Source: Minisyncoccota bacterium (GTDB taxonomy: Bacteria > Patescibacteriota > Minisyncoccia > Phycocordibacterales > UBA9973). From it: a DNA stretch of 24,000 bases. Where the stretch lies: NCBI GenBank assembly GCA_036171755.1, contig JAVHRS010000035.1, positions 2,882 through 26,881 of the forward strand. Reading direction: 5' to 3'. This document shows, in pieces, positions 1-19,738 of the stretch (its first letter is position 1; each line of letters starts with the position of its first letter). A model generated the notes under the pieces. The model was not told where the DNA came from. It saw nothing but the letters and a program-made list of their open reading frames with translations, and ran no database searches. The position numbers and the translations under genes are program-made.

Positions 1-618
1 AATACCAAAATAAATATCATTTTTGGCGTCCCCATTTTTATACCACCACTTCACATTGTTATTTTTTTCAAGATTATTCTCTATAAACCCAATTTCAGTT
101 TCCCATTTATCTACAACATAGACTGGGTTCATAACACACCTTTTGTACTTCTTTTCTTCTGCATTCTTAGGATAATAATCTTCTTTTGATACATTCCACT
201 TAAGATTTTCCTCATAATCCTTTTCAGTTTTTAATCTGCTCTTAGAATATTTTTCTACAGAGCTTTGTATAACTTTAGCAAAGAATGACTGATTTTCTAG
301 TATTATTTTTTGTATATCAATTTTATCTTTGTCATCTTCTTCAAATCCTAAATACTTATTAAATGTTTGATATATCGCTGTAAGTATTGGGCTTATTGAT
401 CTTGCTCTTTGAAAAGGAGAAGTGTAACTTCCTAAGAAATCTTCCACCTTTGTTTTTATTTCATCTAATTCTTTATATCCAAAAACTGTTGTAAGGAGAT
501 TGTTTATCATTAAACGAGTGGCTGATTCATCTAGTTCGGAATATTGTTTACGTAAATATTGTTTGCCGTATGTTTTTAATTTCTTAGCAAACTCTTTTAT
601 TTGATTTTGTGTAGCCAT
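1..618 (-). CDS. Hypothetical protein, first 206 codons (runs off the window); restriction-endonuclease-like signatures
   Basis: Not in the supplied track because it is truncated. I translated the reverse strand and it is open for all 206 codons from the ATG at 618-616: MATQNQIKEFAKKLKTYGKQYLRKQYSELDESATRLMINNLLTTVFGY...YVVDKWETEIGFIENNLEKNNNVKWWYKNGDAKNDIYFGI. The ELDESATR..L and D-x-E...VKWWxKN stretches recall HsdR-N / Res-type PD-(D/E)XK modules. This is from memory and unverified. Confidence 0.6.
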   Translation of the reverse strand, partial: MATQNQIKEFAKKLKTYGKQYLRKQYSELDESATRLMINNLLTTVFGYKELDEIKTKVEDFLGSYTSPFQRARSISPILTAIYQTFNKYLGFEEDDKDKIDIQKIILENQSFFAKVIQSSVEKYSKSRLKTEKDYEENLKWNVSKEDYYPKNAEEKKYKRCVMNPVYVVDKWETEIGFIENNLEKNNNVKWWYKNGDAKNDIYFGI

Positions 619-827
619 AAAATTTGTTACTTTTGCGTTTTAGTAATAAATCCTAGGGTAAGACGCAAAAAGCCCACCACATAGGTAGTGACCGAAGTCA
701 CTCATATCTGTTTCCAGATACGGCACGTAATGCGACCCCATATGATGGGTTCTTTATGCATTACGTGACTAACTTTCACCATGCCTTTATTTCTAAAGGT
801 TTAGGCTACTTAAACTTATTAGGTTGT
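619..827 (-). ncRNA. Structured ~200-nt 5' leader RNA, copy A (unclassified; candidate riboswitch/cis-regulator or ribozyme)
   Basis: About 195 nt (627-820) recur at 6202-6397. Read on the minus strand, the hairpins carry stable tetraloops: CCUUUA-GAAA-UAAAGG, AUCUG-GAAA-CAGAU and GUGAC-UUCG-GUCAC. A 10-bp helix CACGUAAUGC/GCAUUACGUG (plus 724-733/758-767) encloses CCCAU-CAU-AUGGG. Differences between the copies are compensatory. The element lies between a minus-strand promoter (TTGAAT 861-856, TGn-TATTAT 842-834) and the ATG at 618. Confidence 0.8.
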
Positions 828-1062: not shown

Positions 1063-1980
1063 ATGACAACAGAAAAGTTGATCACGTCTGCTCAAACAGA
1101 CAAAGTCGCAGATCTTGGCAGAGAAGCTGTAAAGACTGCAGTTGGTAAAGTAAATCCAACAAGTACCAATGTTCAAACTGGGATCATCAGCAATGGTCGT
1201 GAGTTCAAAAACAGAGTTGAAGAAGCTGTAAAAGCTATCATTCTGGAAATGATTACACCCAACCAGTACGCCAATGAGGTGGTAAGCTCAAGCTATGCCT
1301 ACCCGAAGGAATACAAGATGAAACCGATCGAAGAACAGGTAAGATTCATTGCCGAAAAGTTCGGACTTGATCCGACACAAGCATTGGAATTTATCAAAAT
1401 GTTACCCGCATTACCTGAAGGTGCCGAAGGATGGTTCGCCATTCCAAAAGTATTATCAGTTGCAAAAAAACATTTTTCTGCGATTACCAATTCTGCCGAA
1501 CAGTATTGTGAAGCCGTGAAATTAGTTCACAGCAAACTTGCTGAAAGCCGTAGCTTCTACAATTACCGTGAAGGTCAGATTACCACCGCACAGATTCGCC
1601 AACATCCCCGTACCATCAGTTTCCTCGAACAATTGGAATCTGAACAACAGGGTGACATTCTGATTCTCGCCGTTCAATACGGAATGAGACATCGTGGCAA
1701 ATCAGTTCGCCGTGCAAGAGAAACGTTCTCAGGTAATGAATTCGGACTTGGAGCATTCGCTCTTGGCTATATGGCATTGGTTCACCCCGATCGTTATGTT
1801 CGTTGGGAAGAACTTGATACCGATTGTGCAGGTGACGAATTTGCTCCTGGTGCTGATGGCGTGTTCTCGAAGGCTCCGATCTTCTACTTCAGCGATGTCG
1901 AGCTTGAGTTCGACACGGTCGATGTGTCCCGTGCCCGCGGTAGCTATGGTTCTGCCTCGGCGTTCGTTCCGCAGAATTGA
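1063..1980 (+). CDS. DGR target (variable) protein, family not recognised
   Basis: Long ORF. The track starts it at GTG 1024; I prefer the first ATG at 1063 (MTTEKL...), though neither start has a clear RBS. The C-terminal ~46 codons are the VR. I see no signal peptide, TM segment or known VR scaffold motif. The gene is visibly more GC-rich than the flanking DNA. Confidence 0.85.
   Translation: MTTEKLITSAQTDKVADLGREAVKTAVGKVNPTSTNVQTGIISNGREFKNRVEEAVKAIILEMITPNQYANEVVSSSYAYPKEYKMKPIEEQVRFIAEKFGLDPTQALEFIKMLPALPEGAEGWFAIPKVLSVAKKHFSAITNSAEQYCEAVKLVHSKLAESRSFYNYREGQITTAQIRQHPRTISFLEQLESEQQGDILILAVQYGMRHRGKSVRRARETFSGNEFGLGAFALGYMALVHPDRYVRWEELDTDCAGDEFAPGADGVFSKAPIFYFSDVELEFDTVDVSRARGSYGSASAFVPQN
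1840..1977 (+). repeat. DGR variable region (VR)
   Basis: VR 1844-1974 aligns base for base with TR 2349-2479 (offset 505). There are 15 mismatches, and every one falls at a TR adenine: TR 2355, 2390, 2397, 2403, 2405, 2411, 2423, 2424, 2435, 2436, 2441, 2442, 2445, 2448 and 2477. TR AAAA at 2345-2348 versus VR TTTG would add four more if the repeat starts there. Confidence 0.95.
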
Positions 1981-2044
1981 TCCTTGTACTTTGAATTCTT
2001 GAATCTTTTGTTTCCTTGATTCTTGATCTCAAAAATTTTTTTGA

Positions 2045-2076
2045 ATAGGGTTATCCACATGGATGACCCTATTTTT
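2045..2076 (+). terminator. Rho-independent terminator after the target gene
   Basis: 12-bp stem AUAGGGUUAUCC / GGAUGACCCUAU (2045-2056 / 2061-2072) with an ACAU loop, followed by UUUU. It lies ~65 nt after the VR stop codon and could also correspond to the hairpin described downstream of VR in some DGRs. Confidence 0.8.
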
Positions 2077-2344
2077 GCGTTTAATTCAAAAACTGATATA
2101 GTAACTATGAGCCTAGGTTAGTGTATAGTCGTTTACGGATGACTATCACCGAACTCTTTCTCTTATGAGAAATCTCCGACCAGAATTATAGTGATTATGG
2201 TTACTATAAGAGCGTCGCTGTGATAAGGGATACTGCTTACTACTTTTTAAGGCAAGCATGTAAATGTGTTGCCAGATAAAATACAGAATTGTGATTCATG
2301 TGCAATATCATGTTTCGTGATTTGTGATTTGGATAGAAAGTAGT

Positions 2345-2482
2345 AAAACTCCTGATGCTGATGGCGTGTTCTCGAAGGCTCCGATCTTCAACTTCAACGA
2401 TGACAAGCTTAAGTTCGACACGAACGATGTGTCCAATGCCAACGATAACTATGGTTCTGCCTCGGCGTTCGTTCCGAAGTAT
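2345..2482 (+). repeat. DGR template repeat (TR)
   Basis: Invariant copy of the VR. It carries in-frame AAC/AAT codons (six Asn codons) at the positions that differ in VR. The first non-adenine mismatch is at 2480 (T versus A), marking the IMH/IMH*-type boundary. The 85-aa track ORF 2324..2581 is this repeat, not a gene. Confidence 0.95.
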
Positions 2483-2493
2483 CCAATATACAC

Positions 2494-2521
2494 AAAAGGT
2501 ATCCTGTTAGGGATACCTTTT
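2494..2521. terminator. Bidirectional terminator hairpin between TR and the avd 3' end
   Basis: AAAAGGUAUCC / GGAUACCUUUU stem (2494-2504 / 2511-2521). The GC core has U-rich tails on both strands: UUUUGCUUUUAU on plus and UUUUGUGUAUAUU on minus. It ends 5 nt before the avd stop codon (2526-2528). Confidence 0.7.
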
Positions 2522-2525
2522 GCTT

Positions 2526-2873
2526 TTATCGTTCAACCGAACGAATCCATCCACCAAGCATTCTACCGATCTCGTCGGTAATATTTTGAAGCAGAGTGTA
2601 CTTCTTTACATCAAGCGTTTTACTTTCTTTCATTAGTCGAACAAAGAAACGAAAAATGTTTAATTTTACACTGGCTTTTTCAAGTAAAAGTAATTTGCGT
2701 TCTTTTGAAGAATAACTTGCTTCTAAGACATATTCGAGAATATCAATCATTACATTTTCAGATCGTTCATAGATTGAAAATCTTTCATGTTTTGGGACTA
2801 ATGTTCTGTATTCATGAAATGTTTTATATAACTCGTGAATTTTTCTTAGAATTGGCACATCATTTTCATTCAT
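2526..2873 (-). CDS. avd: DGR accessory variability determinant (Avd), four-helix-bundle type
   Basis: 115 aa. ...LNIFRFFVRLMKESK...ITDEIGRMLGGWIRSVER closely parallels the Bordetella phage bAvd C-terminus as I recall it (LRFWLRFL...EVGRILGSWIARV). It sits immediately beside a DGR RT but on the opposite strand. Confidence 0.85.
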   Translation of the reverse strand: MNENDVPILRKIHELYKTFHEYRTLVPKHERFSIYERSENVMIDILEYVLEASYSSKERKLLLLEKASVKLNIFRFFVRLMKESKTLDVKKYTLLQNITDEIGRMLGGWIRSVER

Positions 2874-3929
2874 ATGCGTGTATTTATCAATTTATTTAAT
2901 TCATTAATTCAGCCAGAACACCTATTTTATTCATGGGAGGAATTTAAACGTGACAAAGGTTTAAAGGAAGATATTCTCTTATTTGAGAAAAATCTTGAAA
3001 GTGAAATATTTAAGCTTCACCGAGAACTAAAAGGAGAAGTGTATAAACATAGCGGATATGAAAGTTTCTTTATTTCAGATCCGAAACGAAGACATATCCA
3101 TAAAGCAACAGTTAGAGACCGTGTAGTACATCATGCAATTATGCATACATTGTATCCTCTTTACGACAAAACATTTATTGATAATTCATTTTCTTGTCGT
3201 GTTGGTAAAGGGACCCATAAAGGTGTTCTTGCCCTTAGATCTATGATTGCCAAGGCGAGTAAAAATAATACTCAAACTGTTTACATTCTCAAGTGTGATG
3301 TTGAGAAATTTTTTGATTCAGTTCATCATATTATTTTAATTGATATACTTAGAAAAAGAATTAGGGACAAAAAACTCATGGATTTACTGATAGAAGTAAT
3401 TGAGAGTTTTATAAGTGATCGTTCTACTTTATTTGATCGTGTAGGTTTACCAATTGGAAATCTTACATCTCAACTTTTTGCAAACATATACATGGATAAA
3501 TTTGACCAATATATGAAGCATGAATTGAAAGTAAAATACTATGCTCGTTACACAGATGACTTTGTTATTGTGAGTAAAAATAAAGAATACTTGTCTAACC
3601 TTAAATTAGATATTTCTAAATTCCTTAGTGAGTCACTAAGACTTACTATTCACCCAAAGAAAATTACCATTCGTAAGTATACTCATGGTATTGATTTTCT
3701 AGGACATGTTTCTTTTCCACATCATGTATTGATAAGAAAAAGAACCTTAGAAAGAGCTACAAGAAGAATTAATGAGAAGATTGTTTTGTATAAAGCAGGA
3801 TCTCTTGAGAAAGAGAAACTTGAAGCCACTTTATACTCATATCTTGGAGTCCTTTCTCATGCCAATGCTTATAGATTTTCTGAGAAACTGAAGAATGACT
3901 ATTTTCTTTCGGTTAATAATCCTAATTAA
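2874..3929 (+). CDS. DGR-type reverse transcriptase
   Basis: 351 aa. Contains IGNLTSQLFANIYM (the DGR-diagnostic [LIV]GxxxSQ motif), the catalytic box YTDDFVIV, DFLGH, and N-terminal DPKRRHIHKATVRDRVVHHA. Adjacent to a TR/VR pair and avd. Confidence 0.95.
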   Translation: MRVFINLFNSLIQPEHLFYSWEEFKRDKGLKEDILLFEKNLESEIFKLHRELKGEVYKHSGYESFFISDPKRRHIHKATVRDRVVHHAIMHTLYPLYDKTFIDNSFSCRVGKGTHKGVLALRSMIAKASKNNTQTVYILKCDVEKFFDSVHHIILIDILRKRIRDKKLMDLLIEVIESFISDRSTLFDRVGLPIGNLTSQLFANIYMDKFDQYMKHELKVKYYARYTDDFVIVSKNKEYLSNLKLDISKFLSESLRLTIHPKKITIRKYTHGIDFLGHVSFPHHVLIRKRTLERATRRINEKIVLYKAGSLEKEKLEATLYSYLGVLSHANAYRFSEKLKNDYFLSVNNPN

Positions 3930-3981: not shown

Positions 3982-5073
3982 TTACTGGCATTGAGGGCTT
4001 AATGTACGACTAGGAAATGAAGAAAGTAACGACTCTAAAGAAGTAAAGGATTTTATATATTTTTCATTTAATGACTTCCAACCATCACATGTTTCTGGAT
4101 AATAATATTTAGAAGTTGAATATGATGATGTGTAATACTTTCCAGTTGAGTTGGTGGTGTTTGTAGAAGTAGAAGAGGATGTTGAAGTCGCAGTAACAGC
4201 AGAAGTTGTAGTATTACCATTACATGTATTAGTAGACCATAACCCTAAAAGATTTGCTTGAGCATATTTTTGTGCTGTTTTAAATTCAGATTGATATTTA
4301 TATGGCGAGTTATAAGTATACTCATGTGCATATCCCTGTTCAATCATGTATTTATTATAAAATAGACCATCTTCTCTATATACATATGCTAAAGTACGCC
4401 CGTATTTATCGAGAGTGCCTTGAGTTGAATCACTTTCAATTCTAACTTTTTTCCCTGATAATAATTCTTTTGCTTTATTGGATGCCTCTTTACCAAAACA
4501 TTGAACTGGTTTCCTTGGATCAAGTGTTTCTGGGGTGTCTAATCCGATAAGGCGAAGCGTTATTATTGCTCCGTCTTTATTTATTTTAATAGTATCCCCA
4601 TCAACAACGCTTGAAACCGCATAATATTTATATTGAGAATTAGGCGAAGTTGTAGGTGTTTGTGCAGAAGTCACCGATTTAACTTCTTGTGCATTTTTTA
4701 CTTCTTGTTTAGCGGGTATTATTTCATTATTTATCTGTTGAGCTGGATTTTTTGTTTCTACTTGAACATTTGTATTTTCTAAAACATTATTATTTTGTGG
4801 AGCAGGTATTATTTCTGTTTTCTTTGGAAGAAAAATAGAAGAAACAATTAATAAGACAATTACAGCAACAATTTTTATTGTCCTTGAAAAGGAAAAATTA
4901 AATTTCTTTTGAATAAATTTAGAAATGACAGGAATTGTAATTAGTGAAGCAAGAATCATAAATATTCCACCTAGAATACTTTTTTCTAAAGTACTAAGAC
5001 CAGCTATTAACAACAATATACCTATGATCCAAGATAGAATGTTGATTAGATTTAATTTAATATTTTTATTCAT
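3982..5073 (-). CDS. Membrane-anchored thermonuclease (SNase) family nuclease
   Basis: Two N-terminal TM helices and a low-complexity linker precede the SNase core (VVDGDTIKI...RLIGLDTPET...CFGKEAS...DKYGRTLAYVY...GYAHEY). A Ser/Thr-rich tract and a small Cys-containing C-terminal domain (KYYYPETC...SPQC) follow. Confidence 0.85.
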   Translation of the reverse strand: MNKNIKLNLINILSWIIGILLLIAGLSTLEKSILGGIFMILASLITIPVISKFIQKKFNFSFSRTIKIVAVIVLLIVSSIFLPKKTEIIPAPQNNNVLENTNVQVETKNPAQQINNEIIPAKQEVKNAQEVKSVTSAQTPTTSPNSQYKYYAVSSVVDGDTIKINKDGAIITLRLIGLDTPETLDPRKPVQCFGKEASNKAKELLSGKKVRIESDSTQGTLDKYGRTLAYVYREDGLFYNKYMIEQGYAHEYTYNSPYKYQSEFKTAQKYAQANLLGLWSTNTCNGNTTTSAVTATSTSSSTSTNTTNSTGKYYTSSYSTSKYYYPETCDGWKSLNEKYIKSFTSLESLLSSFPSRTLSPQCQ

Positions 5074-5480: not shown

Positions 5481-6194
5481 TTATTCATATAAAACAGTTA
5501 AAATGCCAGTACCAGAGAAATCACCTTGGTTTGGGGTATGGATTGTTATTACAGATTTTCCATATTTGTAATCTATGTTAGGATTAACATTTATTTTTTC
5601 CTCTGGAATTCGTATCTTTGGATAAATACCGCCAAAAATAATTTGGTCTGAGTTGAAATGCTGAGTGTAAACAAGTTTATCATTCTTTGACATTGAATTA
5701 CTGCCAGCGTATAACTTCACATCAGCTGTAATTAACATTTTTTCTGTTGCGTCACTAGTTATAATATCTCCATTTTTATCTAAATAAACTACTTCAAGAA
5801 CAGGTCCATCATTCTCGACATCAGCATCCCAATTATCTTGTAGTCCTCCACTAACTCGTATGGCAGATAGTCCATCTATCTGTAAAGTTTTATTAGATGA
5901 TATTGGTGTTGTTGGGACAACTTGAGTATTTGCGACCACTGGTACAGTTTTTGGAGTGGTAACTATTTTATTTTGAACCACTGTATCTTTTTGTATTACG
6001 TTAGTTTCTGCTACCGCAACAGGACTACTTACTGTTGATTCGACAATTGGAATCTCATCTTGTATTGGAATTTGAGCAATAGGTTCTTTTTTGTTTGAGA
6101 ATTTAGAACCAACAAATAGACCAATAACAAGTATTGCAACTATAACAACGATCTTACCTGTCATAGTTTCCATAAATTGTTTTACATCTTTCAT
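5481..6194 (-). CDS. Signal-anchored secreted/surface protein, unknown function
   Basis: 237 aa with an N-terminal hydrophobic anchor IVVIVAILVIGLFVG. The rest is not recognised. It is the first gene after leader RNA copy B and is tightly packed with the two downstream genes. Confidence 0.7.
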   Translation of the reverse strand: MKDVKQFMETMTGKIVVIVAILVIGLFVGSKFSNKKEPIAQIPIQDEIPIVESTVSSPVAVAETNVIQKDTVVQNKIVTTPKTVPVVANTQVVPTTPISSNKTLQIDGLSAIRVSGGLQDNWDADVENDGPVLEVVYLDKNGDIITSDATEKMLITADVKLYAGSNSMSKNDKLVYTQHFNSDQIIFGGIYPKIRIPEEKINVNPNIDYKYGKSVITIHTPNQGDFSGTGILTVLYE

Positions 6195-6403
6195 ATTAGA
6201 TTTACTTTTGCGTTTTTAGTGATAAAACCTAGTGATAAGACACAAAAAGCCCACCACATAGGTAGAGACCGAAGTCTCTCATATCAGTTTCCCGATACGG
6301 CATATCACGCGACCCCATATGATGGGTTCTTTATGCGTGATATGACTAACTTTCACCATGCCTTTATTTCTAAAGGTTTAGGCTACTTAAACTATTAACT
6401 TGT
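6195..6403 (-). ncRNA. Structured ~200-nt 5' leader RNA, copy B
   Basis: 6202-6397 is the second copy of 627-820. Helix changes relative to copy A are compensated: CAUAUCACGC/GCGUGAUAUG, GAGAC-UUCG-GUCUC and AUCGG-GAAA-CUGAU. It starts ~7 nt downstream of a perfect minus-strand TATAAT (6415-6410) and ends at the ATG at 6194. Confidence 0.8.
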
Positions 6404-19573: not shown

Positions 19574-19651
19574 TTTTTTGTAACTTGTAGCTTTGTGGGT
19601 CACAGCTCAACGTCGAGCATGTAGGTCCTCAAAACTAACAGGTTGTCCCTG

Positions 19652-19738
19652 CGGAAGGGGGGAGATTCGAACTCCCGAGGAGCTTTCACCCCTGACAGTT
19701 TTCAAGACTGTTCCATTAGACCACTCTGGCACCCTTCC
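19652..19738 (-). tRNA. tRNA-Ser (anticodon UGA), type II with long variable arm
   Basis: Minus-strand cloverleaf: acceptor GGAAGGG/CCCUUCC plus discriminator G; anticodon arm ACAGU-CUUGAAA-ACUGU; variable stem GGGG/CUCC; T arm GGGAG-UUCGAAU-CUCCC. No CCA is encoded. Confidence 0.9.

Follow-up and report, generated by a model that had tools for sequence, protein, structure and literature searches.

The bacteria of the candidate phyla radiation (CPR) carry a very large share of the known diversity-generating retroelements (DGRs), yet only for the Bordetella phage element has their mechanism been elucidated; there, the RNA responsible for priming and controlling reverse transcription is located downstream of the template. 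The present analysis concerns a DGR in a 24,000-nt stretch of contig JAVHRS010000035.1, referred to below as the window. The element occupies positions 1063-3929 and comprises a target gene with its variable repeat (VR), the template repeat (TR), the accessory variability determinant gene (avd), and the gene of the reverse transcriptase (RT).

The RNA of the Bordetella phage BPP-1 has been described in a cryo-electron microscopy (cryo-EM) preprint (Handa et al., 10.1101/2023.10.23.563531). In that RNA an Avd-binding stem-loop (Sp3-33) stands right after the TR; the template:primer duplex is formed by TR118-127 with Sp47-56 and ends at the priming residue A56; G57 and C58 form a connector; and the 'cPRT Stop' duplex is formed by Sp59-70 with avd369-379, just upstream of the TR. 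Past the stop duplex follow a short stem-loop, unpaired As, a long single-stranded 'Thumb Ring', and an RT-binding stem-loop. The positions of these elements were confirmed by direct reading of the BPP-1 sequence. With regard to gene order, Wu et al. (2018, PMC5758913) define an architecture B3, TR-(avd)-RT with avd on the reverse strand and no other accessory gene, which makes up 90% of the DGRs from CPR in their set.

The layout of the window is ordinary for CPR DGRs. The notable finding is a leader of about 240 nt (2109-2348), a conserved, structured and covariation-supported RNA that pairs with both flanks of the TR and makes the locus a permuted variant of the DGR RNA. The best explanation of the data, to which a probability of about 0.6 is assigned, is a TR-RNA of about 420 nt that would have its own promoter and a bidirectional terminator and would be primed in cis from its 5' leader.

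The element and its structured leader

The TR and the VR (Table 1) align over 134 nt, and all of the 15 internal mismatches (15/15) are adenines in the TR, in agreement with the initial annotation, which had the TR read on the plus strand. One further difference is found at the extreme end of the homology. The VR stops 3 nt short of the stop codon of the target open reading frame (ORF), which ends at 1980; the target gene itself has no family matches in Pfam and NCBIfam. The avd product scores 60 bits with Pfam bAvd (cut-off 40) and 78.2 bits with NCBIfam DivGenRetAVD, slightly below the cut-off of 80. The RT contains IGNLTSQ, which we take to be an instance of the motif (I/L)GxxxSQ typical of DGR RTs. 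The locus thus combines the adenine-specific TR/VR differences, the RT adjoining the TR, the VR at the 3' end of the target gene, and the Avd that are characteristic of DGRs. The TR and VR, avd, the RT, the hairpins, and the abutting ATGs all lie at, or within 2 nt of, the positions first given for them.

For comparison, relatives of the element were gathered from GTDB species genomes (13 loci) and from metagenomes (80 loci). TR/VR pairs are present at all relatives of the window RT, and the VR substitutions at TR adenines differ among related loci. The interval from the target terminator to the TR is conserved between elements with RTs only about 45-57% identical. An RNAalifold consensus of 24 sequences contains 47 pairs, in which 96.8% of the cells are paired, as against 35-57% with the partners slid by 1-3 columns; compensatory changes occur in 35 of the 47 pairs, and none of 500 shuffles (0/500) reaches the observed values. 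Helices 1-4 of the leader 5' domain have 95-99% of the cells paired, with compensatory changes in most pairs. The closing helix Hd is paired in 95-97%, with compensatory changes in 9/13 pairs.

A covariance model of the 3' half (core) of the leader, R1, whose E-values are rough, finds about 65 loci, many of them outside its seed, always on the TR strand and directly 5' of the TR. The structure stored in R1 is paired in 94.4% of the cells over 55 distinct matches. No family of Rfam 15 matches the leader at the gathering threshold; relaxing the limit to E ≤ 10 over 1980-2900 and searching 12 related loci likewise gave none. An earlier description of a CPR TR leader was found neither in Rfam nor in the literature searched, the coverage of which is incomplete.

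The second long-range pairing joins the leader to the tail at the 3' flank of the TR. Its core is AGUAUCC (2478-2484) with GGAUACU (2228-2234), and the pairing is found in the same register in 36 distinct loci. The duplex sequences co-vary, for example GGGAUACU:AGUAUCC in the window, AAAGAG:CUCUUU in L055, UAGAAACU:AGUUUCUA in L034, UUUAGGCA:UGCCUAAA in L048, and AGUGAGGAG:CUCCUCACU in L074. The mean duplex energy is -12.8 kcal/mol for cognate combinations, -9.8 kcal/mol for non-cognate ones, and -7.3 kcal/mol with shuffled tails, and no permutation out of 10,000 (0/10,000) is as low as the observed value. In a fixed, ungapped register anchored on GAAGU, 76% of the cells are paired versus 39-59% when slid, and compensatory changes are counted in 11/14 pairs. 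Near the end of the duplex at which priming is proposed, most relatives have a U.C mismatch at the fourth position, where the window has a U-A pair.

These results bear on the initial annotation, which had regarded the DGR layout as unusual and had envisaged an autonomous TR-RNA that is short (about 2280-2530), with the hairpin after the TR as its only 3' accessory element and the 3' spacer being essentially that hairpin. It is true that hairpins bound the TR region and that the post-TR hairpin is conserved in position. However, conservation and covariation reach 240 nt upstream of the TR, to about 2109; the strands that pair with the TR flanks lie at 2218-2249, outside 2280-2530; and the layout is the catalogued B3. 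A short TR-RNA of this kind is therefore hardly tenable. A separate unit is upheld by the -10-like box, the hairpins, and the loci L038 and L040 (see below), but it would measure about 420 nt, and it is the leader 2109-2348, pairing with both TR flanks, and not the hairpin that forms its accessory part. An RNA of 2280-2530, which had been suggested for cDNA synthesis in vitro, would not include the predicted primer strand and would retain only one strand of the closing helix Hd.

Several other pairings were considered and rejected. That of GAACGAA (2539-2545) with TTCGTTC (2468-2474) and a local hairpin at 2529-2544 are confined to the window lineage, as is the pairing of the 3' arm of the post-TR hairpin with GUAUCC at the TR end. 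The pairing of (C)GGAUGG with CCATCC of the antisense avd or with the TR tail has a central mismatch and no covariation, and that of the leader CUUCGG with the TR CCGAAG is inconsistent among relatives. In RNAalifold on the full TR-RNA alignment, leader CGAACU (2151-2156) pairs with TR AGUUCG (2426-2431); both sides are invariant, which gives no evidence for or against the pair, and it is not claimed here.

Table 1. Positions of the DGR genes, repeats and RNA elements in the window
Feature	Position	Strand	Remarks
DGR target gene	1063..1980	+	start GTG 1024 or ATG 1063
VR	1844..1977	+	3' end of target gene; from alignment to TR
Conserved element past VR	1981..2042	+	(C/T)TTGA(A/T) repeats, invariant TCTTTTG; alignment of 12 diverged loci
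Terminator-like hairpin after target gene	2043..2074	+	-20.5 kcal/mol, z = -6.5; 5' arm has TTATCCACA (2051-2059)
Extended -10-like box	2094..2102	+	TGATATAGT; conserved in relatives as TTTTGATATACT
Leader 5' domain	2109..2217	+	helices Ha, Hb, Hc
Hairpin Ha	2116-2133/2138-2150	+	RNAalifold, covariation
Stem Hb	2157-2172	+	weakly supported; tip length varies in relatives
Hairpin Hc	2177-2195/2200-2217	+	RNAalifold, covariation
Leader strand pairing with TR tail	2218..2234	+	ends in invariant ACU
GC linker	2235..2236	+	between the two duplex strands; C invariant, G nearly invariant
Closing helix Hd	2237-2249/2334-2346	+	13 bp; 3' strand ends 2 nt before TR
Hairpin He	2252..2272 (2252-2258/2265-2272)	+	directly past Hd 5' strand; 6/7 pairs compensatory
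Single-stranded A-rich motif	2273..2288	+	consensus AU(U/A)AAAU(A/U)CAGGA, invariant columns; window sequence CAGAUAAAAUACAGAA
Variable hairpin, then conserved (C)GGUG-N3-(C)GGAUGG	2289..2333	+	small helix 2321-2322/2331-2332; structure partly resolved
TR	2349..2482	+	from alignment to VR
Tail at/just past TR 3' end	2478..2492	+	starts at AGU of conserved CCGAAGU
Post-TR hairpin	2493..2522	both	13-bp stem, GUUA loop, A-tract 5', U-tract 3'
avd	2526..2873	-	115 aa; convergent with TR, divergent from RT
DGR RT	2874..3929	+	RVT_1 domain, 7e-25; contains IGNLTSQ

The proposed transcription unit of the template repeat

The two hairpins at 2043-2074 and 2493-2522 bound the TR as had been proposed, except that the second begins 10 nt, and not 12 nt, past the last aligned TR base; it ends 3 nt before the avd stop codon. 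Its folding energy is -19.0 kcal/mol (z = -6.6) on the plus strand and -18.6 kcal/mol on the minus strand, and on both strands it has the G+C-containing stem and the U-run of an intrinsic terminator. A terminator scan yields 8 sites versus 1.9 expected, and both hairpins are among the 8, the second being listed on the plus strand. In the relatives a hairpin lies between the TR end and the avd stop codon throughout, usually flanked 5' by an A-run and 3' by a U-run, and the stems differ in sequence yet stay complementary. The hairpin 2493-2522 is probably a bidirectional terminator for the TR-RNA and avd, and, judging from the position of the Avd-binding stem-loop in Bordetella, it may also bind Avd.

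On the 5' side, the extended -10-like box (2094-2102) is followed by 7-9 variable nt and then by conserved RNA from about 2109, and it is the predicted promoter of the TR-RNA. The locus L038 has TATAAT at the equivalent place. In L038 (190-950) and in L040 the unit of leader, TR and hairpin converges on avd as usual, but it is located on the strand opposite to the RT. There the RT sits between the VR and the leader, and the TATAAT box of the leader directly abuts the RT start codon. With TR and RT on opposite strands, co-transcription of the two is therefore impossible in these loci.

Past the hairpin, in the stretch antisense to avd, RNAalifold finds no conserved structure in the 150 nt that follow, and the synonymous codon diversity of the last 36 avd codons is 0.82, versus 0.86 elsewhere in avd. 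This stretch thus appears to hold nothing conserved beyond the coding constraint. Taken together, the -10-like box, the flanking hairpins, the unconstrained antisense avd, and the arrangement in L038 and L040 support the TR as a separate transcription unit.

The alternative is an RNA that, as in Bordetella, reads through the hairpin, so that the antisense avd (2523-2873) would be a spacer with the priming site and the RT-binding elements, and the RT would be translated from a TR-RT transcript. Such a transcript would accord with the shared strand of the TR and the RT, between which there is no further plus-strand gene, with the post-TR hairpin being positioned as the Avd-binding stem-loop that in Bordetella precedes the rest of the spacer, and with the abutting start codons, which leave no room for an RT promoter outside avd. 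However, the interval between TR and RT, which consists of a 10-nt linker, the hairpin and the inverted avd, contains no spacer of the Bordetella type: neither conserved structure nor extra constraint is found in it, the synonymous sites at the avd end varying freely. Candidates picked by eye, such as GAACGAA with TTCGTTC mentioned above, are missing in close relatives, and partners of both TR flanks are found in the leader. Moreover, TR and RT are on opposite strands in L038 and L040, and the A-tract and U-tract flanks of the hairpin are typical of a bidirectional terminator. Read-through of this kind is accordingly given little credence.

The abutment deserves separate consideration. As the initial annotation had noted, avd is inverted between TR and RT, and its start codon (CAT, 2871-2873) directly adjoins that of the RT (ATG, 2874-2876). 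Should the hairpin terminate efficiently, the RT would be transcribed from within the 5' end of avd and avd from within the RT, or the mRNAs would be leaderless; the promoter scan, which is at chance level (see below), places neither promoter. The N-termini of avd and RT are both conserved from residue 1 in the relatives, and the two divergent starts are spaced by -2 to +5 nt in 35 and by 14-17 nt in 3 of the 38 distinct loci. Head-to-head abutment is a conserved trait of the lineage and not a peculiarity of the window.

Gene layout, relatives and neighbouring elements

With TR on the plus strand, avd on the minus strand (2873-2526), and the RT again on the plus strand, the window has the B3 arrangement. 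A 99% identical locus, L001, comes from a metagenome-assembled genome (MAG) of Candidatus Saccharibacteria; other relatives are in MAGs of Nomurabacteria, Paceibacterota and Patescibacteria, and the closest ones are CPR/Patescibacteria. The element in the window is a standard B3-type CPR DGR from a Candidatus Saccharibacteria genome. Nearly every relative with an RT identity of at least 42% has an inverted avd directly upstream of the RT, with the TR on the RT strand just past the avd stop codon and the VR further upstream, the exceptions being L038 and L040. In more distant elements (RT identity 33-38%) avd is co-oriented with the RT.

A B3-like layout is the rule among the approximately 65 relatives, as it is in the CPR DGRs of PMC5758913. 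The initial annotation had called the layout atypical and had named commonness among described DGR classes as the finding that would speak against this view; comparison with the catalogued architectures finds the arrangement to be common among described DGRs, and the designation as atypical does not stand.

A distant RT match (29% identity) in L013 was rejected as a DGR. It is flanked by two Intron_gpII matches, at 2640-2716 (-) and 5616-5713 (+), and belongs to a group II intron instead.

Between the stop codon that follows the VR and the hairpin at 2043-2074, a segment of 60 nt (1981-2042) is kept between elements whose RTs share only about 55% identity, and it may serve as an extended target-recognition site resembling the initiation of mutagenic homing (IMH) site. 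The adjacent hairpin holds a perfect DnaA-box-like 9-mer, TTATCCACA, at 2051-2059. The same 9-mer is located 73-125 nt (mostly 73-83) past the VR end in about 20 related loci, when about 3 occurrences are expected over all loci. The stem sequence of this hairpin is conserved, unlike that of the freely varying post-TR hairpin, which suggests a sequence-specific role beyond termination.

Other observations concern the surroundings of the element. The gene beside the RT (3982-5073, minus strand) has a product of 363 aa that combines a hydrophobic N-terminal region with a staphylococcal-nuclease (SNase) domain. Two LOOT RNA motifs (Rfam RF03000), at 687-807 (-) and 6264-6384 (-), score 74.9 and 73.6 bits. 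The copies are 93% identical, with compensatory changes in three stems, and a minus-strand ORF of unknown function (618..1 or 6194..5481) lies shortly downstream of each. Between the two copies are the DGR and three neighbouring genes. LOOT was rejected as a part of the DGR, being absent from 12 related DGR loci. At 19651-19738 (-), the Rfam tRNA-Sec model scores 48.6 bits versus a threshold of 47, and ARAGORN reports tRNA-Ser(UGA), so that the gene probably encodes a tRNA-Ser with a long arm rather than one for selenocysteine.

Proposed priming, and comparison with the Bordetella RNA and retrons

In the proposed mechanism, transcription of the non-coding TR-RNA would start at about 2109 from the extended -10 promoter just past the target terminator and would end at the hairpin 2493-2522, which would also be the terminator of the convergent avd. 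The RNA elements required by RT-Avd would sit in the folded 240-nt leader and not in a 3' spacer. The leader strand 2218-2234 pairs with the tail 2478-2492 just 3' of the TR, and, two nucleotides on (GC, 2235-2236), the strand 2237-2249 pairs with 2334-2346 immediately 5' of the TR, so that the TR is looped out between the two neighbouring helices. If the Bordetella phage complex is taken as a guide, the cDNA would be primed in cis from a nucleotide at about U2234/G2235, where the leader:tail duplex ends, and its synthesis would run 3' to 5' through the TR and halt at helix Hd. The topology would resemble that of a retron, the priming nucleotide being 5' of the template.

Several points weigh against this mechanism. 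The promoter and 3' end of the TR-RNA, as well as the lack of read-through into the RT, are predicted; the promoter scan as a whole is at chance (11 sites versus 12.7 expected) and does not list the box 2094-2102. Phylogenetic relatedness is not entirely eliminated by the covariation controls, although the slid controls and the R1 matches outside the seed address it in part, and the pairs were counted on the alignments from which the structure came. The TR adenine beside the leader:tail duplex, A2477, is C in every VR inspected; because it looks like a fixed TR/VR difference rather than a result of mutagenesis, the exact cDNA start site and the first templated base are uncertain. The domain of about 110 nt at the 5' end of the leader (2109-2217) has no counterpart in Bordetella. 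The Rfam model RF03022 (Phage_DGR), which as a positive control scores BPP-1 at 104.7 bits, has no match in the window (E ≤ 10 over 1980-2900) or in 12 related loci, and R1 has no match in BPP-1. There being no covariance-model similarity either way, the correspondence between the two RNAs therefore rests on element order and geometry, homology being undetected.

Alternatively, the leader may hold the TR in a loop for the sake of folding, stability or recruitment of RT-Avd, with priming from elsewhere, such as the 3' end or hairpin of the TR-RNA, a separate primer, or nicked target DNA. The structure and both pairings are observed, and it is the priming chemistry itself that is predicted. The apparently fixed difference at A2477 and a predicted priming residue of U/G, not the A of Bordetella, may also be counted in favour of priming from elsewhere. 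Moreover, an earlier paper reportedly proposed priming from nicked template RNA in Bordetella. On the other hand, the succession of duplex, GC and duplex beside the template 3' end matches the cis-priming site of the cryo-EM structure element for element, and the invariance of ACU and of the linker C, with a nearly invariant G, across diverged loci suggests more than a structural clamp. Priming from outside the leader is considered unlikely.

If cis-priming from the leader is correct, with the same core geometry placed upstream, the cryo-EM mechanism would generalise and the connectivity of the RNA would be flexible. The B3 gene order would also be simply explained, both the possibility of an inverted avd and the lack of a spacer between TR and RT. 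In reconstituting or engineering a CPR DGR, the 240-nt leader would be needed, and not the region past the TR. With the R1 model, TR units in metagenomes can be annotated by searching for a defined RNA motif.

The element in the window is a member of the B3 CPR DGRs, with the same order and orientation of target/VR, TR, inverted avd and RT and a CPR host, and in gene layout it does not differ from them. No description of the structured leader, the abutting start codons or the boundaries of the TR-RNA was found in the sections of PMC5758913 consulted or in the literature searched.

In the msr-msd RNA of retrons, priming takes place from a nucleotide located 5' of the template, and the strand ending in this nucleotide is paired with the template RNA at the latter's 3' end; the RNA is non-coding and is transcribed separately, next to the RT gene. 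The topology of the window RNA matches this arrangement. In contrast, the RT clade differs, and a DGR requires Avd and its product serves adenine-mutagenic retrohoming into the VR; no msr/msd motif or Rfam retron family is matched in the window.

The closest correspondence is with the RNA of Bordetella BPP-1 (avd 3' end, TR and 140-nt spacer; RF03022; Handa et al. 2018). Both have a duplex at the template 3' end directly beside a duplex with a segment 5' of the TR, and in both the two duplexes are separated by GC, the window GC (2235-2236) corresponding to Sp G57 and C58. Window 2218-2234 is the analogue of the primer strand Sp47-56, and 2237-2249 that of the Sp59-70 strand of the 'cPRT Stop' duplex. 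Both RNAs have a stem-loop, unpaired As and a long single strand past the stop strand, and a stem-loop directly past the template-side strand; the post-TR hairpin matches the Avd-binding stem-loop in position. A U.C mismatch near the priming end is common to both, at the third position in BPP-1 and at the fourth in most relatives of the window. The differences are that in the window all elements but the post-TR stem-loop lie 5' of the TR instead of 3', that avd is inverted and would use the hairpin as a shared terminator, that the 5' domain is extra, and that the predicted priming residue is U/G instead of A.

The order in the window RNA is the primer-type strand, GC, the Hd 5' strand, He, the A-rich single strand (2273-2288), a further hairpin region, the Hd 3' strand, the TR, the tail, and the stem-loop. 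As read from the predicted elements, this order corresponds to that of the Bordetella RNA after circular permutation, with the primer strand as its starting point in place of the upstream stop strand, and with an added 5' domain. For the B3 CPR DGRs as a whole, the most abundant class, the odds are judged to be about even that the RNA is likewise circularly permuted relative to Bordetella, with upstream cis-priming of retron-like topology and a self-contained template-RNA gene that shares its terminator with avd; on that same even footing, the primer strand, the stop-duplex strand and the probable RT-binding elements, which Bordetella carries downstream of its template, would in these elements all reside in the leader.

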